Positions 37,136 through 53,185 of a stretch of 64,000 bases of DNA are shown here, one piece after another; position 1 is the first letter of the stretch; every line of letters begins with the position of its first letter. The position numbers were made by a program, and so were the translations under genes. The stretch lies in sequence record NC_100371.1; one strand, written 5' to 3'. This stretch comes from a phage. The notes beneath the pieces are model-generated. The model had not been told where the DNA came from. It searched no databases and worked only from the letters and a program-made list of their open reading frames with translations.

Positions 37136-37990
37136 TTATGCCAGTGCAGCCTCAAAATCTTTCATCATATTTTGGAAAGTTTTTGCCTTACTTAAGGTAA
37201 CACCGTGCTCTTTAGCGAAGGTTTGGAGTGCATCTTTCGAACCACTCTTGTCATCTTCGTTGTTAAGAGCTGCGGCTTGCTGCAGTATGGCATCAACATC
37301 GCCGTGAGAAGATCTTGATTCTTGTGCCTGTTCAGGATCCTGCTCAGTACCTTCCGTACCCTCCGGTGCGGTCGGACCCGGTGATTCCTCACTGCCACCA
37401 CCAGGTTCAGTAGGGCCTACAGGTGGCTCCGGCTCTGGTTCAGGTTCTGGGGCTACTGTAGAAGTCAGACCAAGATTTACAACCTGAGAACGTTTCTTAG
37501 GCCACTCAATGGTGAAAGTCTGGGTATCTTCTGCATAAGCAACATCGCATTGCTCATCGTTTATGGTCACTTTTTTGGGCATCCCTTCAGGGTCCCACAG
37601 ATGACCTTCTGCCACTGAAACTTTGAAAGCGGCATCTACCTCTTTAAACACTGACGGGGTGAGTGTGATATTGACATCACCGCTTTGCAGTGTTAAAGTG
37701 CTTTCATCAAGGTTCTCTGTGAAGAACAGAAGAATAACACCCATACGGATAGTTGAGATACCAGTATCAATTGGCAGGCCTGTGTGTTTTGCAATCTTCT
37801 CGAAGAAGTCTACAATCGTTCTGCACGGATAGTGAACACTGCCAATAACGAATTCTGTTGGTGGCAGCAGGGCTGATAAACCAACATTGATTTCTGGATT
37901 GTATTGTGCTAAAAATTGATAAAAACTTAACTGATTGTTGAAAACTCTTAATAGAGGATCATACTCGACTGGATATACGGCTCTCTTCAC
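37136..37990 (-). CDS. hypothetical head-associated protein with PEPEPEPEP linker (284 aa)
   Basis: ORF downstream of major capsid gene; low-complexity Pro/Glu linker and acidic tail. Confidence 0.3.
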   Translation of the reverse strand: MKRAVYPVEYDPLLRVFNNQLSFYQFLAQYNPEINVGLSALLPPTEFVIGSVHYPCRTIVDFFEKIAKHTGLPIDTGISTIRMGVILLFFTENLDESTLTLQSGDVNITLTPSVFKEVDAAFKVSVAEGHLWDPEGMPKKVTINDEQCDVAYAEDTQTFTIEWPKKRSQVVNLGLTSTVAPEPEPEPEPPVGPTEPGGGSEESPGPTAPEGTEGTEQDPEQAQESRSSHGDVDAILQQAAALNNEDDKSGSKDALQTFAKEHGVTLSKAKTFQNMMKDFEAALA

Positions 37991-42649: not shown

Positions 42650-43741
42650 TTAGATAAAACGCTTGAACATAGAAGGTGATGAGATTGATGGAATCACACA
42701 AGGCAGCGCTACCTCCTCTTTCTCCAGGAAATTAATCGCAGAAGCTACACAGTCGGCCCAGTCGTCTTTTCTGTTAAATGTTGATCTTTCCCCGTTGAAC
42801 TTTTCAAGTTCAGTCAGAAATGCTTCCAGAGTGTCAGGATGGAAACTGGATTTTACAATCCTCACCATTCCTTGTTGGGCAAGATTGGCAAAAGGTGAGA
42901 ACCTTGTCAGTTTAGATTTGTTGGAAGGCATTGGATCTTCTTCAACCCTGAACCCTTCGGCGAGCAAGGATCTGGACGAGGTTAAGAATTCACTCTTACC
43001 TGCCTGACCGGGGTCCACAGAAAATACGATTATGCAATCATCTCCATCAAACTGCGCCTGTTTCCTGATGATCACATCTCGTTCCCCAGCCTTTTTACAG
43101 AACTTACCTTCCAGACCTGTGGAATACCTACCGTCATCCACGTTCTCAGGACAATAATCTCCGGACAGGTAATAAAAGCCGTCGCTATCTTTACTTACCT
43201 TAACACTGGCGGTAAAGTCAGGAAATTTATTACCGGAAGTTCTCTCGGTTCCTGCTTTATCCCATGCCCTGCAAGATACTGATCCAAGAGGTACTCTATC
43301 GGCATCACGAAGGAAAGATCTTTGGAAATAGTTTGCACCCTCAGGTTTGGCAAACCAGTTGCCATGAAGAAGCTGGGCTTTTTCAAGCTCTGGCAGACCT
43401 TCAAGGAAAGCAAGGTATTCTGGGTTGTCTCTCAAGCAGACAGGGTTATCGAAAATTGTTGCTCCTATAAACGAGAATGACAACGGTCTTGGCTTGATCT
43501 CCACACCCAGTCCGTTAACCGTGGTGTATTTCTCTATTAACTCTTCTTTAGAGTCTCCCCAAATAAATTCACCGTCGCGTCGGATAAAATATCTTTTCTT
43601 ACCACATTTCTCCGGATCTGGATACCCTTCATCGTCCAACCACCACCTGACCAGTTTGGCAAGCATGTGTTCTGAGTCGGGGTTACAACTGATAACCATT
43701 CTTGATGGATACTTTGACTGAGATCGCAGACGAGACATCAA
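42650..43741 (-). CDS. terL: terminase large subunit, exon 2 (C-terminal part; 5' boundary approximate)
   Basis: Begins near SRMVISCNPD (motif III-like) and continues through a nuclease-type region; reading frame is open upstream into the intron, exact 3' splice site not determined. Confidence 0.65.
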   Translation of the reverse strand: MMSRLRSQSKYPSRMVISCNPDSEHMLAKLVRWWLDDEGYPDPEKCGKKRYFIRRDGEFIWGDSKEELIEKYTTVNGLGVEIKPRPLSFSFIGATIFDNPVCLRDNPEYLAFLEGLPELEKAQLLHGNWFAKPEGANYFQRSFLRDADRVPLGSVSCRAWDKAGTERTSGNKFPDFTASVKVSKDSDGFYYLSGDYCPENVDDGRYSTGLEGKFCKKAGERDVIIRKQAQFDGDDCIIVFSVDPGQAGKSEFLTSSRSLLAEGFRVEEDPMPSNKSKLTRFSPFANLAQQGMVRIVKSSFHPDTLEAFLTELEKFNGERSTFNRKDDWADCVASAINFLEKEEVALPCVIPSISSPSMFKRFI

Positions 43742-44654
43742 ATAGTCTATCTGCTCCCATTCGAATTGCGTCGTTTATGTTCGGGCAAGGTCGCTAGTCT
43801 TGCCCCGCCATTTTCAGGCAGCTGCATGTCTCCATGCAGACCAGACTATATCTTATGAATGTGCAAATACTCTGCTGCTCTAAGAATGGTTTCCTCATCC
43901 TCTTGGAAGAAACCTAAAGCTCTGTTGCATTTATCACAAAGCAACCCTCTTACAGCACCAGTTTTATGGTCATGATCAACACAAAAGAAATCTCTGTACC
44001 CTTGCGTCCTATACTCATCAAGAGATATTCTACAAATGGCACACTTATGATCTTGATCTGAGAGTAAGCGATAGTATTCATCTTTTGTTATGTGAAATTT
44101 CTTCTCAATCTGATAAAACTTTTCACACATCTTACACCTGTTCGTAACCAGATACACTTTACCATAGTCACGTTTTGTGTAAAAACTATCAGCAAGCATA
44201 CTTTCATGACAAGATTTACATTCAAAAAGCTCACCTTTCTTCAGTAAGTCTTGAATAAAAGATGCTGCATCATCTCTCTTAACCATATTTTTGTTTCTAC
44301 GAGATCCATTCTTCCTGTAGTACATATAGCATTCCTTGCATGTACCGGAGTATCCATCCTTGCTCTTAGATGATAAAAAGAAATCATCAAGAGGTAGAAC
44401 TCTTTGGCAATCCATACATTTTTTAGTATTACACATTCACCCTCCCGTTTCGAATCGCTTGATTCTACGTCTTTCGACTAGTCGTTGAACGTTCATCCTT
44501 TCGGATGCTTCGCTGCGGATTATCTAAATTAACACACTGTTACCATACCTTCGATCTCTCTTCGAAGCCTCTATCATGTTACCATGACAGGTTGGTGGTG
44601 TCAATAATAAAGATTTCCCCGCAATTAGGGAGGTTTTACGAGAGCTACAAATTA
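43742..44654 (-). mobile_element. group I intron (td-like) in terL, carrying HNH homing endonuclease ORF
   Basis: Minus strand begins UAAUUUGU... right after exon codon GGU (in-frame UAA); contains P-like AAUUGCGGGGAAA, Q-like AAUCCGCAGC, R-like GUUCAACGACUAGUC and S-like AAGAUAUAGUCU in canonical order. Confidence 0.7.
43846..44436 (-). CDS. HNH homing endonuclease (intron-encoded, 196 aa)
   Basis: Own GGGAGGG RBS; several CxxC zinc-finger pairs and HNH/EndoVII-type motif CVDHDHKTGAVRGLLCDKCNRALG; stop codon UAG lies inside the S element. Confidence 0.7.
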   Translation of the reverse strand: MCNTKKCMDCQRVLPLDDFFLSSKSKDGYSGTCKECYMYYRKNGSRRNKNMVKRDDAASFIQDLLKKGELFECKSCHESMLADSFYTKRDYGKVYLVTNRCKMCEKFYQIEKKFHITKDEYYRLLSDQDHKCAICRISLDEYRTQGYRDFFCVDHDHKTGAVRGLLCDKCNRALGFFQEDEETILRAAEYLHIHKI

Positions 44655-45080
44655 ACCCTCATCGAAGCAAACCATGGTGTACTCAAGTCCTTGATGGTTA
44701 AGCTTATCTTGGACATACTCCATGTGGCAGTATTTTACAACAGCTCCTTTTTTGCTCCTGTCCCACTTGCCAGTGCTCGGATCAAACCGTGGAAAAATAA
44801 ACTTATGATCCTTCTCTCTGAACTTTGGTTTAATGTTTTCAGGCAGATCACTGTAAATAGCTACTGCTTTAGGCCATAGCCCACCCTCACCTTCCAACTG
44901 TGGAGTTGTTCTTCGGAACATAACCACAGAGCTGTGTGGGTCATCAATAATTTTAAGCGGCATCAACTGCAGGAGGAACGACTTACCTGACCCAGCCGCA
45001 CCACCAATGACAAGAATGTCTGCATCGTTTTCCAGGATCATCTTCTGCTTTTCAGAACACGGTCCGTAAATCTTAGACAT
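44652..45080 (-). CDS. terL: terminase large subunit, exon 1 (N-terminal ATPase part)
   Basis: Walker A ILVIGGAAGSGKSF and Walker B MVCFDEG; ORF ends at TAA directly after DEG, which I read as the first intron codon. Confidence 0.7.
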   Translation of the reverse strand: MSKIYGPCSEKQKMILENDADILVIGGAAGSGKSFLLQLMPLKIIDDPHSSVVMFRRTTPQLEGEGGLWPKAVAIYSDLPENIKPKFREKDHKFIFPRFDPSTGKWDRSKKGAVVKYCHMEYVQDKLNHQGLEYTMVCFDEG

Positions 45081-46184: not shown

Positions 46185-46261
46185 TGGTCTCCACGGAGTG
46201 ATTCGAACACTCGACCTCCTGATCCCAAATCAGGCGCTCTACCAAGCTGAGCTACGCGGAG
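46185..46261 (-). tRNA. tRNA-Pro (anticodon UGG)
   Basis: Manual fold: acceptor CUCCGCG/CGUGGAG, anticodon arm CCUGA-UUUGGGA-UCAGG, T-arm GAGUG-UUCGAAU-CACUC, encoded CCA. Confidence 0.75.
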
Positions 46262-46272
46262 TATTTATTATT

Positions 46273-46347
46273 TGGTGGCCCTGGGTGGAATTGAACCACC
46301 GTCTGGCGATTATGAGTCGCTTGCTTGAACCTTCCAGCTACAGGGCC
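46273..46347 (-). tRNA. tRNA-Met (anticodon CAU; could be Ile-lysidine type)
   Basis: Manual fold: acceptor GGCCCUG/CAGGGCC, anticodon loop CUCAUAA, T-arm GGUGG-UUCAAUU-CCACC, CCA. Confidence 0.7.
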
Positions 46348-46348
46348 A

Positions 46349-46424
46349 TGGTGCTGATGGCAGGACTTGAACCTGCAACCTATTGATTACAAATCAATTG
46401 CACTGCCAATTGTGCTACATCAGC
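46349..46424 (-). tRNA. tRNA-Thr (anticodon UGU)
   Basis: Manual fold: acceptor GCUGAUG/CAUCAGC, anticodon arm AUUGA-UUUGUAA-UCAAU, T-loop UUCAAGU, CCA. Confidence 0.7.
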
Positions 46425-46430
46425 AAAAGG

Positions 46431-46527
46431 TGCTAGGTGATGGAATCGAACCATCTATGTATTCAACGACTACCTCGTCTATTTTCAGGATTAAAAATCC
46501 TCGCCCTTGCCAAAGGGCTTACCTAGC
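46431..46527 (-). tRNA. atypical tRNA-like gene (97 nt; Lys-like UUUUUAA loop; identity unresolved)
   Basis: Perfect 7-bp acceptor GCUAGGU/ACCUAGC, D-arm GCCC-UUUGGCAA-GGGC, T-arm GAUGG-UUCGAUU-CCAUC, but 46 nt between D- and T-arms; no encoded CCA. Confidence 0.4.
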
Positions 46528-46625
46528 TCAGCATGTTGACCATGTTGCTAGTCGGCGATGACGACTGTAACATTTGATAATCCGGTTCTGCTTCCGGCTT
46601 TCGCTTAATTACAAGGTCAACAATA

Positions 46626-46716
46626 TGGCAGAGGATAATGGAATCGAACCATCATCGAGTCATCCTCAACGGGACGGTTTTCAAGACCGCTTGAGCACCA
46701 TTGCTCCCTACCCTCT
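46626..46716 (-). tRNA. tRNA-Ser (anticodon UGA), class II
   Basis: Manual fold: acceptor AGAGGGU/AUCCUCU, anticodon arm GCGGU-CUUGAAA-ACCGU, long variable arm, T-loop UUCGAUU, CCA. Confidence 0.7.
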
Positions 46717-46830
46717 TTTATAAACAATACTGATAATGACACTGATTTTCGAGCAGTTAGTGACTAGTATAAACGACGATAAATATCAATGCCATTATCT
46801 GTATGATTTATGCATTTAAAAATATAAATT

Positions 46831-46918
46831 TGGTGGTGAGTGATGGAGTCGAACCACCCGAATCGCAATGATAACAGATTTACAGTCTGCCCCGCTACCC
46901 CTACGGAATTAACTCACC
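46831..46918 (-). tRNA. tRNA-Tyr (anticodon GUA), class II
   Basis: Manual fold: acceptor GGUGAGU/ACUCACC, anticodon arm GCAGA-CUGUAAA-UCUGU, long variable arm, T-loop UUCGACU, CCA. Confidence 0.7.
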
Positions 46919-47048
46919 TAAATACTAATATTTAAATTCTTTTTAAAATAGCTAGTGTTCTAACCACTAACTATGAGGTATCGGTAAAGTGGTTACCGCC
47001 ACTTGCCGAAGATTTACTCTGCTAAAGTAAGCTACATTAAAAAGAACT

Positions 47049-47123
47049 TGGCACCCCGTACTGGACTCGAACCAGTGTCAACGGCTTAGAAGGCCGCTGC
47101 TTTATCCACTAAGCTAACAGGGC
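47049..47123 (-). tRNA. tRNA-Arg (anticodon UCU)
   Basis: Manual fold: acceptor GCCCUGU/ACGGGGU (two G-U pairs), anticodon arm GCGGC-CUUCUAA-GCCGU, T-arm ACUGG-UUCGAGU-CCAGU, CCA. Confidence 0.65.
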
Positions 47124-47558: not shown

Positions 47559-47903
47559 GTTTCCTCCATTATCACGTGATAGGTGGATTTTATCACGGCA
47601 AATACTGATTGTCAAGTTCGCCGCAGGGTGGTATTCCCTGCGACTTGCCCAGCGTCCTGGACCAGCAAGACCCAACAAGTGGGTTACCAGATACCCATTA
47701 CCGCGCTCTGGCTCGACCTTATTACAGGTTGGCTGGGGTCACATCGTCATGTGCTGGCTGCCCCTACCATTTTAAGTGTGGTGCACTATCAAGCCCTCTA
47801 AGGGGAACTCAGCCTTCTCCGAACCCTGTTTCAAAGCATCCGGAGATAAAGCCATCAAACTCATCTTTAAATTGGATATTCATCATGATACACGAAAACA
47901 ACC

Positions 47904-48421: not shown

Positions 48422-49000
48422 TCAACGTTCGTAGTAAATCTTATTCAACATTACCTCATCGTTTGCAGAAAGGATATCAAGATATGCATCACCAAATCTG
48501 CCTGCAACAACCTCTGCATGATACATCACTTCGTTAACATCGTCAAGAGTGATAACCGGATGACCATATCTTTCTGAATATTGTCTCAGTGTGCGATGTA
48601 ACGAGTCGTCATCATATGCAGACTTTTTAATATCACAAACACGACGAATGGCCTTGATGTCGAAAAAACCTGTGCGATACCACCCAAGAAAAAAGTTCCG
48701 TGTAGTGTCAACATCTACATCAATACCATTAAGAACCTTATCTACAAGATAGCTGTCATCCTTTGGACTAGCGTCCTTAGTGCGAATGTAGTTGCCATCT
48801 TTTCCAGGTGATAGCTCCTTCTCATCACCAACCTGCATGCCATCATTTGGCGGTGTTAGCCACTTATCAGGATGCTTACGATCACGAGCGTTAGAATGAT
48901 TACGCTGGAAACCTGGCTTCCACTTGAAAGTTTTCTCCATCTGTTCTTCATTCTGATAACGTTTTGCAATCTTTTCACTGGCATCTTTGCGTGAACTCAT
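48422..49000 (-). CDS. hypothetical protein (192 aa)
   Basis: ORF with start overlapping upstream ORF stop; no motif recognised. Confidence 0.35.
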   Translation of the reverse strand: MSSRKDASEKIAKRYQNEEQMEKTFKWKPGFQRNHSNARDRKHPDKWLTPPNDGMQVGDEKELSPGKDGNYIRTKDASPKDDSYLVDKVLNGIDVDVDTTRNFFLGWYRTGFFDIKAIRRVCDIKKSAYDDDSLHRTLRQYSERYGHPVITLDDVNEVMYHAEVVAGRFGDAYLDILSANDEVMLNKIYYER

Positions 49001-49140
49001 AGCAGACTCCTCTTCAAGTTATAGAAAAACTCACTGTATCGCTTTGTAACGAGCTTTTCTATCAAACTGGTGCGATTGCCTTACTTGGTATAGTTTATAT
49101 AGCTGTGGAGCGATTTAGGGGCCTTCTTGTCAGTTTCCAC

Positions 49141-49375
49141 ACATAAACTTTATCCGAACTCGCGCGGGAGGCTCTCAACCGACTCCTTCCGGCGCTGGCA
49201 AGCTTTCGTCGGTGGTCCACATTAGTGCTCGGCCTTTGGCCTGCGCTATCGCTTCGCTCCCACACATGTTAACAGTCCTGCATGTATGCACTTCTGTTAT
49301 TGTGTGCACTATGGAGGCCCGGCATCTCGCCCCTCGTAGGCGAGTGCCAATGAAGGGCCGACACTACCCATAATA
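49141..49375. other. GC-rich hairpin-dense island in intergenic region
   Basis: Composition shift versus AT-rich flanks; multiple local dyads (CCGAC...GUCGG, GGCC-UUU-GGCC, CUCGCC-CCUCGUA-GGCGAG); no ORF of 60 aa or more. Confidence 0.3.
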
Positions 49376-49505
49376 AGTAATAAATTTAAAACATGGTACT
49401 TAGGATCTAGTATATTCTACATAAGTTAAGTATATGTACTTTAGTACCATAAGTACTAGATCTTTTATTTTTTATTATTTAGTTATTTTAGTTATATTCT
49501 TTATG

Positions 49506-49587
49506 TGTCCGTATCACGGACAGTTAGTGTCCGTATTACGGGCAGATGTGTCCGCGTGACGGACAGTAGTGTCCGTATCACGGACAG
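49506..49587. repeat. four tandem 21-22 bp iteron/operator-like repeats with internal dyad symmetry
   Basis: TGTCCGTATCACGGACAG at 49506 and 49570 (identical), variants at 49528 (TGTCCGTATTACGGGCAG) and 49549 (TGTCCGCGTGACGGACAG); period 22/21/21 bp; AT-rich tract with inverted repeat AGATCTAGTA at 49402-49462 just upstream. Confidence 0.6.
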
Positions 49588-49661
49588 TTACTAACCTCTG
49601 TTCCAGAGTGAACATAAAACATACAAATCCTTATAGTACAGATGTTTAAGTTTTTACTGGT

Positions 49662-50012
49662 CTAACCAGTTGTTGACATTCGAATAACTTCTTCTGGTGG
49701 CAAAACTTTGGAAAATGTGCATCTTTTACCTCTCCCTTGTGTGGATATTTCAACCACTCCTGCACATTCTAAAGTTTTAACGCACGCTGCTGCTTTTGTT
49801 TTCTTTATCCCAACATCTGCTGCAATTTTCCTGGTGCTGGGTGTGAAGCGTGAATTTTCTCCAAGCTTATACCAGTTGTGCAGGTAGCAGTATACGATCT
49901 TGTCATATAAGTCAAGAACAATAACCTCCCCAGTTGTGCCATTCAAAACTTTTGACATAGACAGTATTTCAAGGGGGACTTTAAGATATAGCAGCTTATC
50001 CCCATCTTTCAT
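49662..50012 (-). CDS. helix-turn-helix DNA-binding protein (116 aa)
   Basis: Segment FTPSTRKIAADVGIKKTKAAACVKTLECAGVV resembles a winged-helix/HTH; adjacent to the repeat array. Confidence 0.4.
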   Translation of the reverse strand: MKDGDKLLYLKVPLEILSMSKVLNGTTGEVIVLDLYDKIVYCYLHNWYKLGENSRFTPSTRKIAADVGIKKTKAAACVKTLECAGVVEISTQGRGKRCTFSKVLPPEEVIRMSTTG

Positions 50013-50059: not shown

Positions 50060-50614
50060 TTACTCCCCGCTGTCAATAGCAAGACTCATTGCAATACGGT
50101 ATGCCTCTTCTAATGGTAAGAGTCTCCCCCACACATCCCAACCGACATCAAACTGCCTGCCAAACAACTGCTGTGTGGTTCCGTGAGCATGACCGAACAG
50201 TTGGACTGATCCGTGAGGCTTTCTGTTCCACTTTGCAAACTGGTAATGGCTCATACAGATCAAATTCTTGTTGTGGCGAAGCTCGTAATAATCTACAACC
50301 TCATGACCGAACTCTTTCATAATTCTGACAGTCGTCCTTGTGTCATGGTTACCACGAACAAGAATAATATGTCCGTTCAACATATTTAGAACATCTGGAA
50401 GCAATTTGTTGATATTCTTATCATTAGTGCACGCAATATCCCCCAAGTGAAACACAGTGTCTGCAGGTGACACAACAGAGTTCCACTTGGTGATGATTCC
50501 CGCATTCATACTGTCAAGATTGTGATCATACTGAGATCTGTGTTTTTGACATGAGTCGAACTCCATTACCCGCTGGTGGAGAAAGTGTGTGTCGCTTGTT
50601 ACAAAGTATTTCAT
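50060..50614 (-). CDS. calcineurin-like metallophosphoesterase (184 aa from ATG at 50614)
   Basis: Motifs SDTHF, GDI, GNHD, GHAHG; start with GAGGAA RBS; ORF-track start at 50719 would overlap the kinase. Confidence 0.6.
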   Translation of the reverse strand: MKYFVTSDTHFLHQRVMEFDSCQKHRSQYDHNLDSMNAGIITKWNSVVSPADTVFHLGDIACTNDKNINKLLPDVLNMLNGHIILVRGNHDTRTTVRIMKEFGHEVVDYYELRHNKNLICMSHYQFAKWNRKPHGSVQLFGHAHGTTQQLFGRQFDVGWDVWGRLLPLEEAYRIAMSLAIDSGE

Positions 50615-50621
50615 ACATTCC

Positions 50622-51032
50622 TCATTTAAGTTTAATGCAGTTTTTAAGCTGGCGTTCCATACGATCCACAACCCTGTCTGGAACATCATGAATGCTTTTA
50701 TTACCATGGCGGTTTTCAACCACGATCACGGTATAACTATATCCATGACTGATCGCCATGTCAATATATTCTTGCACATATTTTTCTTTTGTAAACGTAT
50801 TACTTACCACGATACGGTCGTAGCCCATACGCATCATATCTTCTACGTTATCTTTGCACCATTTTGCTGCAAGTGTTACTTTACTTGCATCCCAATTGTA
50901 ATTGCCGTCATCGTCGTACCAGAACATATCGTTCTCAAAATGTGGATACAGACCTTCTAAAGATAGCGCATTTGCCAGTGTTGATTTGCCAGACCCTGGT
51001 AGACCACGCACGATATATAGCATTTTAGACAT
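50622..51032 (-). CDS. P-loop polynucleotide-kinase-like kinase (137 aa from ATG at 51032)
   Basis: Walker A IVRGLPGSGKSTLA near N-terminus; GGAGAG RBS upstream of ATG at 51032. Confidence 0.5.
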   Translation of the reverse strand: MSKMLYIVRGLPGSGKSTLANALSLEGLYPHFENDMFWYDDDGNYNWDASKVTLAAKWCKDNVEDMMRMGYDRIVVSNTFTKEKYVQEYIDMAISHGYSYTVIVVENRHGNKSIHDVPDRVVDRMERQLKNCIKLK

Positions 51033-51150
51033 AGTAACTCTCCGTTTTAATTTTAATGATAGTATACCTAACTGTTTTGTTAATTTCAAGTGTTGACACC
51101 AGGTTATTTGTGTGGCAGAATAAAGGGACAAAATGACAAATGAGGAATGT

Positions 51151-52068
51151 ATGATGAAGTATTTTAATGCAGACGACCTGGTTGACAAAGGTCTTGTAAC
51201 CAGCAGATATTACCCAGATCTTGGATTAAAGATCTACAAATATGCCAGAAAAGTATTCTACAACAATTTATGGCATTTGTCTCCGCGTTTACTAGAGTGC
51301 CGAGGCATTGTTGTCGGTAATGAAGGAAATGTTGTGGCATGGCCCTTCACAAAAGTGTTTAATTTGGGAGAAAACTCCACCAACCTGCCTGACAATAAAC
51401 TTGTGACGGCGGTAGAGAAAAAGAACGGATTCCTTGGTGTGGTATCATCTCATAAAGGTGAACTATTGTTTTCAACAACCGGGTCTCTTGATTCTCCATA
51501 TTGTAACCTTGCAAAGGAAACCATCCAGGAGCAATGTGGTAATTTAGATCTTATCAAGAAGGTTATGGGCCATGAAAACATGACATTCATGTTTGAAATT
51601 TGTCACCCTTCAGATCCGCATATTGTTCAGGAAGATCATGGCGCATATTTGATAGGTTGCAGATATAATGATTCTGGAATAATGCTACCAGAAGCAGCTT
51701 TAGATGGGATTGCCAAATACCTTGGTGCAAAACGTCCTCACACTGTGCGTGAAATTCCGTTCAGCTATGCAAAAGAATTAGCTGCAGAAACAAGGGGTGA
51801 AGGGTATATGATCCGTAAGCCTTACTACCCTTATGACCTGCAACTAAAGATCAAGTCTCCCTACTATCTGGCACGGAAGGCCGTAATGAGGTGTAGAGCT
51901 TGGAAGATTTGGGATGATGATATCTTTAAACGTGTTGACGAAGAGTTTTACGGCATGGTAAACTTCATTCGTAGGAACTACACAGAAGATGTGTGGAATT
52001 GCCTCCTGGAGCAGGAACGCCGTGAGATACTTGACTGCTATTTCCACAACGAGGACTATATGCAATGA
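51151..52068 (+). CDS. RNA ligase-like nucleotidyltransferase
   Basis: Motif I-like VEKKNGFLG (KxNG as in Rnl1/tRNA-ligase type); GAGGAA RBS before ATG 51151; divergent from kinase/phosphatase pair. Confidence 0.5.
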   Translation: MMKYFNADDLVDKGLVTSRYYPDLGLKIYKYARKVFYNNLWHLSPRLLECRGIVVGNEGNVVAWPFTKVFNLGENSTNLPDNKLVTAVEKKNGFLGVVSSHKGELLFSTTGSLDSPYCNLAKETIQEQCGNLDLIKKVMGHENMTFMFEICHPSDPHIVQEDHGAYLIGCRYNDSGIMLPEAALDGIAKYLGAKRPHTVREIPFSYAKELAAETRGEGYMIRKPYYPYDLQLKIKSPYYLARKAVMRCRAWKIWDDDIFKRVDEEFYGMVNFIRRNYTEDVWNCLLEQERREILDCYFHNEDYMQ

Positions 52069-52415
52069 AGAAGTTGATTGTGTGGCTTGATGATTTTAGA
52101 GATCCGTCAGATTATGGACTACCAGACGCTCTGTGGCTGAAGAATTCTTCTGAGTTTATGGATTTTCTTAATGATAAGAGAAAGCTCTACAGACGCGTAT
52201 CTGAGTGGTATTTTGACAATGATCTAGGGGAAGTGCTTGAAGGGTACGACTGCTTCTCTGCGCTAGAGGAGAAACTTGTATTCGGAAAGCCACCACTTAT
52301 TGACAACGTGATTATTTTCGTGCATACTTCTAATCCATCGGCAGCTCGTAAATTTATGCTTGCTGCTGACTCATTCAAGAAGTTTGGAATAGAGATCAAA
52401 CAAAACATCTACTAA
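52065..52415 (+). CDS. hypothetical protein (116 aa), translationally coupled to RNA ligase
   Basis: ATGA start/stop overlap with RNA ligase gene; no motif recognised. Confidence 0.35.
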   Translation: MKKLIVWLDDFRDPSDYGLPDALWLKNSSEFMDFLNDKRKLYRRVSEWYFDNDLGEVLEGYDCFSALEEKLVFGKPPLIDNVIIFVHTSNPSAARKFMLAADSFKKFGIEIKQNIY

Positions 52416-52423
52416 GGACATTT

Positions 52424-53185
52424 ATGCGACGACTTATTGTTATTTCTGGTGCTGGCTTGAGCGCAGAATCTGGGATCCCAACTTTTCGTTCTGGTCAAAC
52501 TGCAATGTGGGAGAATTTCAGCATCGATGAGGTGTGTAACATCCACACCTTTGCCAAGAACTACTATAAGGTGCATGACTTTTACAATGCACGGCGTGTA
52601 GCTCTGGGCAGTGTTGATCCTAACCTTGCACATCTCCGGATCGCTGAGTGGTATTCACGTTGGTCTGGTCGTGTGATCAACCTGACAACCAATGTAGATG
52701 ATTTGCTGGAGCGTGCTGGTGTTAAACATGAAGATATCTTACATGTCCACGGGTATTTGCCTGAAATCACCTACGAAGATGCTGAAGGTAATGATGTAAT
52801 TAAAAATATCGGATACACGGAGGTAGATACAGGCAAGTATACTTGGGTTAAGCCCAATGTGGTGTTCTTCGGTGAGGTTGCTCCTAAGTATACAGACATG
52901 TATGACCTATTGACATCTCTTACCAGCAATGATATGGTGATCCTGGTGGGTTGTTCTAACACAGTTATTAATTTTAACTGGGAATTGTTTCCTGCTACTT
53001 GTAAAGGCACAAAACTACTGATTGTAAACAAGTATGATTCGCAGAGTGCAGATGGAAGCGGCATTTCACGTAGCGACCTTTATCAATATGAGGATCGCGG
53101 GATCCCGGTTTGGTTTAACGGGGCGGTTGATGCTTTCTCTGATAAAACATTCATTGAGACCGTAGAAAACTTTATGGAACTTTAA
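52424..53185 (+). CDS. Sir2 (sirtuin-fold) family protein lacking zinc-ribbon cysteines
   Basis: Motifs GAGLSAESGIPTFR, NLTTNVDDL, catalytic-type HG (LHVHGYL), VGCSNT; no CxxC pairs where the sirtuin Zn module would be. Confidence 0.6.
   Translation: MRRLIVISGAGLSAESGIPTFRSGQTAMWENFSIDEVCNIHTFAKNYYKVHDFYNARRVALGSVDPNLAHLRIAEWYSRWSGRVINLTTNVDDLLERAGVKHEDILHVHGYLPEITYEDAEGNDVIKNIGYTEVDTGKYTWVKPNVVFFGEVAPKYTDMYDLLTSLTSNDMVILVGCSNTVINFNWELFPATCKGTKLLIVNKYDSQSADGSGISRSDLYQYEDRGIPVWFNGAVDAFSDKTFIETVENFMEL

Follow-up and report, generated by a model that had tools for sequence, protein, structure and literature searches.

In the window, the whole 64,000-nt stretch of phage DNA analysed here (NC_100371.1), the minus-strand genes at 48422-49000 and 49662-50012 leave a gap of 660 bp between them, and this gap holds an island rich in G+C and in hairpins. 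When the 801 bases around the island were compared with phage genomes, 118 records matched at 90-99.8% identity, all of them rV5-like myophages of the genus Vequintavirus, to which the window belongs. Eighteen of the 118 are labelled 'Campylobacter phage' and match as the coliphages do. The gene on the left (48422-49000, minus strand) falls in phrog_12226, to which no function is assigned, and is preceded by a leader/promoter region (49001-49103, minus strand) with an internal hairpin (49021-49032 paired with 49051-49062). This region shows 3.4% divergence (here and below, the mean pairwise value among nine close phages) and is conserved in the divergent Vequintavirus genome L009. None of the records examined annotates the island as a feature.

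The G+C content of positions 49141-49375 is 55.7%, compared to 43.9% for the whole window and 36.8% for the immediate flanks, a value reached by only 0.09% of all 235-nt windows. Just three regions of the 64 kb have at least 55% G+C: 37201-37507, which lies within an ORF, 47594-47854, and 49099-49388. Paralogy of the two G+C-rich islands was rejected, as their alignment score equals the shuffle mean. Folding exceeds that of shuffled sequence, with z-scores for 49100-49400 of -4.1 on the plus strand and -1.9 on the minus strand. For 49121-49375, dinucleotide shuffles gave -3.4 (plus) and -1.8 (minus) with RNA parameters and -2.7 and -2.1 with DNA parameters, under which the hairpins are stable on both strands. 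The abrupt rise in G+C and the several stable hairpins that a preliminary description had pointed out are therefore real, as is its observation that no ORF reaches 60 amino acids; the longest overlapping ones are of 56, 53, 44, 32, and 31 aa. That description had placed the island at 49141-49375, and while the island stands, its left boundary does not: the true edge is some 35 nt further left, near 49104. The structured and conserved part runs from about 49104 to 49365 (56% G+C versus 37% in the flanks).

The island is built from four or five stem-loop cassettes, several with a C/A-rich CCCACACA end, all described here on the plus strand. A leading cassette (49104-49143), seen in the fold, pairs GTGGA...TCCAC around GCGATTTAGGGGCC and ends CCACACA (49137-49143); its GCGATTTAG(G/A)GG is also found upstream of the arrays of the plasmids described below. 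The only likeness to a DnaA box is a single 8-of-9 match at 49131-49139. Cassette M1 (49160-49222) has a stem (49176-49183 paired with 49208-49215), a 24-nt loop at 49184-49207 reading TCCTT(C/A)CGGCGCTGGCAAGCTTTC, and the 3' tail GGTCCACA. H2 (49223-49266) pairs TAGTGC/GCGCTA around GGCC-TTT-GGCC and continues into a mini-hairpin, GC-TTC-GC (GCGAAGC on the minus strand), before its end CCCACACA (49259-49266). H3 (49261-49306), a variable module, is one long hairpin, CACACA..TTAACAG..TGCA-TGTA-TGCA..CTGTTA..TGTGTG. M4 (49313-49365) is nested, GGCCC / GGCA(T)CTCGCC - CCTCGTA - GGCGAGTGCC / GGGCC, followed by GACAC. T7-type primase sites (GTGTC here, GGGTC in L009) flank M4 on the minus strand, an observation made by eye and post hoc.

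To the right, the island adjoins an AT-rich stretch (20% G+C over 49376-49500) that forms an imperfect palindrome (49370-49487) ending TTTTATTTTTTATTATTT on the plus strand, a candidate unwinding element and/or bidirectional terminator. Next come four iterons (49505-49590), each 21-22 bp long with the palindrome TGTCCG-N5-CGGACA and spaced by 22, 21, and 21 nt. They are the sole tandem repeats in the gap and its sole direct-repeat family of more than two copies. In phage V18 exactly one iteron unit is absent, and in L009 the iterons are replaced by unrelated repeats. The stop codon of the right-hand gene (49662-50012, minus strand) adjoins the iteron side, and its 116-aa winged-helix product, the presumed iteron binder, matches phrog_12838 at 6e-78, annotated 'replication initiation protein', as well as Pfam DUF6945 and HTH_36. 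Its best PDB match, 4ro3, is only a hypothetical winged helix-turn-helix (wHTH) protein, and its L009 counterpart has 143 aa and 26% identity.

The island matches no known RNA family. At the gathering threshold, Rfam 15 returned only six tRNAs for the whole window, and relaxing the filters gave rli43 as the top hit in the gap, at 24.6 bits versus a threshold of 100; the search of Rfam that had been proposed for the island thus identified no known ncRNA family in either mode. Rfam likewise gave nothing usable for the second G+C-rich island, and ARAGORN found no tRNA or tmRNA at 49100-49400, all six genes lying at 46185-47123. Among 50,697 phage records there are no homologs outside Vequintavirus. 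The island occurs at no place on 5,426 E. coli chromosomes; six places were found, all on plasmids, and an origin from host repeats of the REP/BIME type was rejected because chromosomal copies are absent in these 5,426 genomes. Scans of genome and metagenome collections with 18-mers returned mostly chance matches in G+C-rich genomes, with L136, L143, L156, L201, L207, and L209 as the only genuine ones; L008 (IMG/VR) was rejected as a chance match inside a gene.

To judge constraint on the island, divergence was compared across the gap and its flanking genes. The island is present in all 118 Vequintavirus records and diverges by 3.8% overall, with M4 at 0.0% in the nine phages, H2 at 0.5%, M1 at 2.8%, and H3 at 6.3%. 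The AT-rich stretch (0.7%) and the iterons (0.2%) diverge even less, compared to 10.6% at third codon positions of the left-hand gene and 3.3% at those of the winged-helix gene. Set against the 10.6% of the left-hand gene, these values indicate that the island and its right-hand neighbours are under purifying selection. The suggestion that the island is a remnant of an inserted element finds no support here, as none of these 118 relatives lacks it and its divergence lies below that of synonymous sites. Within variable H3, phages A6-1 and Pr121LW carry an 18-nt deletion that still leaves TGCA-TGTG-TGCA.

Outside Vequintavirus, the only homologs of the island lie in unannotated DNA of a few small, circular E. 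coli plasmids of 13.2-13.7 kb; one 39.6-kb plasmid record matches three times and is as large as a trimer would be. These plasmids encode a major capsid protein, a tape measure protein, a tail or baseplate protein, and a neck protein, and the last three have 25-50% amino acid identity to proteins of the window. Iteron arrays of their own accompany a Rep-like winged-helix protein of 303 aa, likewise their own, and neither terminase nor portal was found among the ORFs scanned. Because of this gene content we read them as plasmid-resident elements that, by sequence, look like satellites of Vequintavirus. Two metagenome contigs supply further variants, giving a set of four ~13-kb plasmids and two contigs. 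In the literature, our searches turned up no account of satellites for rV5-like phages.

All six satellite sequences contain M1, at 84-86% identity, and M4 is found in NZ_CP020521 only, with 87% identity. In each satellite array M1 comes first and is followed by two to five further units, which vary from plasmid to plasmid. Many of these units read as three mini-hairpins with 3-nt loops, often G-N-A on the plus strand, and each ends CCCACACA(C) on that strand. The phage island follows the same cassette-array logic. Searches with an M1 covariance model gave a single copy in each replicon, and nothing additional or divergent in the window, in the satellites, in the non-coding box of phage LL12 described below, or at the corresponding loci of the sister genus Mydovirus. 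Rfam had no match to the satellite array region at E <= 1. Fold z-scores for the phage and satellite arrays lie at about -2.7 to -5.3, with the divergent L009 island at only -1.0 to -1.7.

Comparison of phage and satellite copies shows that base pairing in M1 and M4 has been kept by compensatory change. The M1 stem is CAACCGAC/GTCGGTGG in the phage but TTGCTGCC/GGCAGCGG in its satellite counterparts; in three of the eight pairs both partners differ, and pairing holds in 93% of cells. When the M1 partners were slid by one to three columns as a control, no compensatory pair appeared and at most 64.5% were paired. The 24-nt loop of M1, in contrast to this changing stem, is invariant between phage and satellites bar one position. 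M4 contributes two compensatory pairs (GGCA/TGCC to GTCA/TGAC and CTCGCC/GGCGAG to CTCTCC/GGAGAG), bringing the total to five. An alternative long M1 stem (GCGC.GGGAGG / CCTTCC.GCGC), which might have served as a pseudoknot partner, was rejected, as it shows no covariation and leaves 12% of cells unpaired. Pairing therefore appears to be the selected property, which implies a single-stranded, folded state with an M1 loop that is read by sequence. The covariation rests on few events because only two or three independent lineages exist, and inverted protein-binding half-sites that change together could imitate it in M1, which is less plausible for the nested and bulged M4. A search of the 64 kb for complements of the M1 loop gave only chance 9-10-mers, and neither a complementary target nor a binding partner was found there.

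As to the strand, the plus strand carries all of the C/A-rich punctuation and the G-N-A triloops. In the satellites the M1 stem has gained two U.G pairs, which exist on the plus strand only, and the H2 outer stem has a T.G wobble on the plus strand, to which L009 adds a second; both are mismatches on the minus strand. In our reading of the alignments, wobble-compatible variation favours the plus strand by 4 to 1, with one change in L009 that pairs on the minus strand only. Two wobbles in a 6-bp stem are more tolerable in RNA than in DNA, which makes us lean toward a plus-strand RNA. In L009 and L136, hairpins with T runs that resemble terminators lie on the plus strand 3' of the arrays and beyond the island itself (four sites in terminator scans versus 0.6-0.9 expected in shuffles), and the same hairpin is seen by eye at the array end in four more satellites. 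In the window, a long AT-rich hairpin with a T run occupies the terminator position and folds better on the plus strand (z = -2.0, compared to -0.2 on the minus strand). Fold z-scores and RNAalifold on phage-only alignments show no consistent strand preference.

Signals for transcription are harder to place. Scans of both strands upstream found no conserved sigma-70 promoter; a candidate divergent plus-strand extended -10, TGGTATAGT at 49087-49095, is absent in L009 and was not picked by the scan. The rV5 genome paper predicts neither promoter nor terminator in this gap, and a scan of 48900-49750 for intrinsic terminators (G+C-rich hairpin plus T run) found none. A general promoter motif was rejected, as GTGTGGG and TGTGGGA are not enriched in the window; CCACACA is enriched ~2.3-fold overall, mostly within coding sequence. 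As for the physical form, we favour a plus-strand transcript over single-stranded DNA hairpins. The earlier proposal of a structured ncRNA consequently holds in its first half, since purifying selection and five compensatory double changes support a structured element; that the element is an ncRNA is plausible, with no Rfam match, no convincing conserved promoter, and an ambiguous strand on the other side.

Non-coding, under selection, common to phage and satellites, and with its pairing kept by compensation, the island also holds a constant position by the iterons. In the divergent Vequintavirus genomes L009, L201, and L222, it is kept at about 85% identity together with the left-hand gene, while to its right the T-rich stretch is a different one, the repeats are unrelated, and the winged-helix protein has just 26% identity. 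The T-rich stretch of L009 is non-homologous to the AT-rich stretch of the window and occupies the same place. The satellite arrays in turn adjoin their own, unrelated iterons, with an AT-rich stretch or a short G-rich spacer in between. The order of array, AT-rich stretch or spacer, and iterons thus recurs with three different sets of repeats and proteins, in the window, in L009, and in the satellites, and this recurrence is our main reason for tying the island to a replication-control block.

The remainder of the block resembles an iteron origin, in which at least three direct repeats about two helical turns apart lie next to an AT-rich element; here, four repeats at 49505-49590 adjoin the AT-rich stretch at 49376-49500. 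An initiator candidate lies nearby, named as such by phrog_12838. Pfam and PDB identify it only as a wHTH protein, and its 116 aa are too short for a full initiator; as it is an initiator by its PHROG label only, it could be an ordinary regulator with four operators. By synteny, the whole block is absent from Mydovirus and therefore is not the universal origin of the subfamily, and where another phage encodes a homolog of the left-hand gene (50% identity), the upstream region shows no island. The authors of the rV5 genome paper were unable to locate an origin.

Our best reading, held tentatively and with somewhat less than even confidence, is that the island is a structure-dependent docking element of a replication-control block that satellites have copied. 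We infer a role in replication and a binding partner common to phage and satellites, and prefer RNA over DNA and the plus strand. The block would be specific to Vequintavirus and plasmid-like, comprising the wHTH gene, the four iterons, the AT-rich palindrome, the hairpin array, and a divergent promoter region. The array would act single-stranded and folded, as a docking platform, with M1 offering its invariant 24-nt loop on a stem that is free to vary to a phage or host factor that reads the loop, and the other cassettes contributing stable hairpins with unpaired C/A-rich tracts between them. In its favoured form the array would be a plus-strand transcript of roughly 270-380 nt, starting near 49100 and stopping in the AT-rich palindrome; alternatively, single-stranded DNA hairpins may be extruded upon melting of the AT-rich stretch. 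The satellites, which carry their own M1-led array by their own origin, would presumably engage the same factor when a helper infects.

As the key hairpin recurs only in small satellite-like plasmids of E. coli, the island is probably a place where phage and parasite draw on common machinery. It is possible, with confidence clearly short of even, that the island is a helper-side, structure-specific recognition element, which an as yet undescribed class of satellites has copied to gain access to the replication or RNA machinery of the helper. If this is true, M1 would be the first molecular handle on the helper-satellite interface for a virulent coliphage, and the hairpin-plus-CCCACACA array a new modular cis/trans element outside known families of RNAs or origins. 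rV5-like phages are among the coliphages most commonly isolated and are used in therapeutic cocktails, with their origins, ncRNAs, and parasites essentially uncharted, and the island is a precise candidate for a structured element linked to replication or regulation. Its homologs also point to circular E. coli elements of ~13 kb that are apparent plasmid-maintained satellites of a virulent myophage. The element could serve as a marker for further satellites or as a part for engineering mobilisable cargo.

The island falls into no known family; in kind it is a fresh variation either on the cis-elements that helpers share with their satellites or on structured nucleic acids near origins. Phages P2 and P4 share the cos site and a dyad upstream of late promoters that is read by Ogr/Delta. 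As in that pair, phage and satellite keep near-identical non-coding sequence even though their proteins have diverged much further or are unrelated, which implies a common trans-acting reader. Unlike P2/P4, the stem here covaries around an invariant loop, and the island lies neither at the reported genome end nor at a fixed distance from a promoter. The helper is also a virulent myophage of 137 kb, with a satellite that exists as a plasmid. Among theta replicons, structured elements include RNA II of ColE1 and the ssi or primosome assembly sites of ColE1, pAMbeta1, and the G4 type. By analogy, the island resembles these in being G+C-rich, hairpin-dense, 100-300 nt long, probably orientation-dependent, and within ~150 bp of what would be the unwinding or initiation point. 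It departs from ssi sites in that, in the simplest fork geometry, its plus strand is not the displaced strand, and in that rV5 encodes a T7 gp4-like primase-helicase and does not rely on PriA/DnaG.

The lambda-type origin combines four dyad-symmetric repeats, an AT-rich stretch, and an O-like initiator. The candidate origin described here has four 21-22-bp dyad repeats, an AT-rich neighbour, and a wHTH gene whose PHROG is annotated as an initiator. However, its protein has only 116 aa and no helicase-recruitment domain, its repeats are located outside the gene, on the downstream side, and nothing of similar size in lambda corresponds to the hairpin array.

The rival that survives best is a free-standing, trans-acting ncRNA unrelated to replication, a decoy or sponge whose hairpin-plus-CCCACACA units would titrate a protein that binds RNA. 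Conceivable targets are a defence or toxin protein and host factors such as Rho, which loads at C-rich, G-poor sites; phage and satellite would each have a version because both must neutralise the same host factor. The modular build, the variable number of satellite cassettes (two to five), and the constant, strand-specific punctuation would all suit a decoy, as would the terminator-like ends 3' of the arrays on the plus strand and a G+C-rich island in an AT-rich genome, which is typical of structural RNAs. We nevertheless consider it doubtful. No promoter was found, the constant place of the array beside an origin-like region is left unexplained, and the CCACAC hexamer is enriched in both orientations across the non-coding DNA of the satellites, which fits a DNA-level motif as well. 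There is precedent for an RNA decoy in PhiTE, an rV5-related phage whose pseudo-ToxI RNA acts against a host system (PMC3475682), and this too is a non-coding, repeat-containing locus. Unlike ToxI, which consists of tandem near-identical 36-nt repeats, the cassettes of the island differ in sequence and are not the near-identical repeats of type III antitoxins. A ToxI-like antitoxin was itself rejected, since only the iterons form a direct-repeat family with more than two copies in the gap and neither flanking gene has a Pfam match to a toxin family.

A packaging site, pac-like and read by the helper terminase, which satellites would copy for their encapsidation, is unlikely. Non-coding sequence shared by helper and satellite is classically a packaging signal, as with the cos site of P2 and P4, and some 4 kb separate the island from the large terminase gene, which follows downstream on the same strand. 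The only report of termini for the genus, a PhageTerm analysis of the close relative LL12, puts a 459-bp non-permuted terminal repeat elsewhere, in a 2.5-kb non-coding box between convergent transcripts (PMC6658697), and on this literature basis the packaging site proposed in the preliminary description loses most of its appeal. Nothing in the window matches the LL12 box. All four satellite plasmids compared share, at 96% identity, a 24-nt stretch that lies just within the LL12 repeat, which makes this stretch the better candidate for a packaging mimic. The LL12 box and the satellites also have a triple mini-hairpin cassette in common, which occurs inverted near an LL12 gene and at different places in the satellites. 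Satellites thus appear to copy several non-coding pieces of the helper. Other Vequintavirus reports describe permuted or headful genomes and do not name a site.

It is quite unlikely that the island is a transcriptional boundary or leader, that is, an insulator, a Rho-dependent terminator, or a structured leader separating the wHTH operon from the next one, with the satellite array shielding the rep promoter and origin. The phage and satellite arrays do lie upstream of a minus-strand operon and beside terminator-like hairpins, and the C-rich unpaired tracts between hairpins resemble Rho loading sites. The island itself, however, has no terminator of the hairpin-plus-T-run kind, and an insulator would not need an invariant 24-nt loop while the stem changes. 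Very unlikely are selfish or neutral hairpin cassettes, like REP/BIME or miniature mobile elements, that do no service to the phage. Cassettes are shuffled among satellites, a related triple mini-hairpin occurs in the LL12 box, near an LL12 gene, and at varied satellite places, and REP/BIME elements are likewise intergenic arrays of G+C-rich imperfect palindromes. But unlike these, the island has no homolog on 5,426 E. coli chromosomes and lacks the REP consensus, M1 is single-copy per replicon, and M4, H2, and M1 diverge far less than synonymous sites.

That the island encodes small proteins (a 56-aa ORF at 49095-49265 and a 31-aa ORF at 49269-49364, both on the minus strand, and a 53-aa ORF at 49212-49373 on the plus strand) is barely credible, even though some GenBank records annotate two hypothetical proteins here: frameshifting indels in relatives and the lack of any Pfam or PHROG match for these ORFs lead us to reject coding. 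In an eight-phage alignment, 1-nt indels inside the small ORFs shift the frames in Alma, Phage 206, and V18, so that the comparison with related phages does not reveal an ordinary coding sequence in place of the island. The starts and stops of the ORFs differ in L009, the ORFs are not kept in the satellites, and substitutions track the stems rather than codons.

Circular Escherichia coli "plasmids" of about 13 kb (L004, which is NZ_CP020521, and also L003, L005, L006, L136 and L156) carry genes for a major capsid protein and a tape measure protein along with tail and neck genes that share 25 to 50% identity with Vequintavirus proteins. They also possess their own Rep and their own iterons, and neither a terminase nor a portal gene was found in them. 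The elements appear to be satellites of virulent rV5-like phages that exist in plasmid form, a kind not described before. The record NZ_CP043822 is 39.6 kb long and contains the match three times, a size that fits a trimer.

Non-coding pieces are common to the satellites and the close relative LL12. First, a 24-nt stretch of the LL12 locus L007 (positions 2493 to 2516; approximately 104992 to 105015 of the LL12 record) lies 27 nt inside the terminal repeat predicted by PhageTerm. Its counterpart in L004 is at 519 to 542, and it is 96% identical in four of four satellite plasmids compared, making it a candidate packaging-signal mimic. Second, three mini-hairpins (CTGGC-TAT-GCCAG, GTGACC-TTT-GGTCAC, and CCC-TTC-GGG) form a cassette that occurs in the LL12 non-coding box (L007 3085 to 3136) and, inverted, near or inside an LL12 gene (L007 968 to 1024). 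Satellite copies include L006 5943 to 5994 and L004 10884 to 10934; the locations vary among satellites, and one copy falls within an annotated Rep gene.

When whole satellites (L004 and L136) were examined, the hexamer CCACAC/GTGTGG was found 25 times in a 13.7-kb satellite versus ~7 expected, mostly in non-coding DNA, in both orientations, and often as TGTGGG(A/T)AAT. Across the window, CCACACA likewise occurs 25 times versus 10.8 expected. The motif may be protein binding or promoter related.

A second non-coding G+C-rich island, at 47620 to 47850, is among only three stretches of the window with at least 55% G+C and lies directly upstream of P074, a sigma-70 promoter named in the rV5 paper. 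It is 92.6% identical between the window and the divergent Vequintavirus L201/L222, and on the minus strand the differences include one compensatory pair and six one-sided, wobble-compatible changes. An Rfam search with this island returned no match, it has no similarity to the first island, and the satellites lack it. The island is a candidate second ncRNA.

The large terminase gene is in two pieces on the minus strand (42650 to 45080). By domain content, 44652 to 45080 encodes the N-terminal part of Terminase_6N, and 42650 to 43741 encodes its remainder plus Terminase_6C, with an Endonuclease_7-type open reading frame between them (43846 to 44436). In phage NHEP1 the gene is an unbroken 1,548 nt. 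The split looks like a homing-endonuclease insertion or a mobile intron; Rfam called no group I intron there.

Right of the 660-bp gap, an RNA-repair-like cluster (50060 to 53185) comprises a metallophosphoesterase, an AAA_33/zeta-like kinase, an Rnl1-type RNA ligase, and a Sir2 protein. In the sister genus Mydovirus, the ligase and phosphoesterase are co-directional, and the block of winged-helix gene, iterons, and first island is absent.

In the minus-strand tRNA cluster (46185 to 47123), ARAGORN and Rfam calls differ: ARAGORN reports a tRNA of 99 nt whose anticodon is 4 nt long (46429 to 46527) and a tRNA-Ser (46626 to 46716), while the tRNA at 46834 to 46918, tRNA-Tyr in the NHEP1 annotation, is called by Rfam instead.
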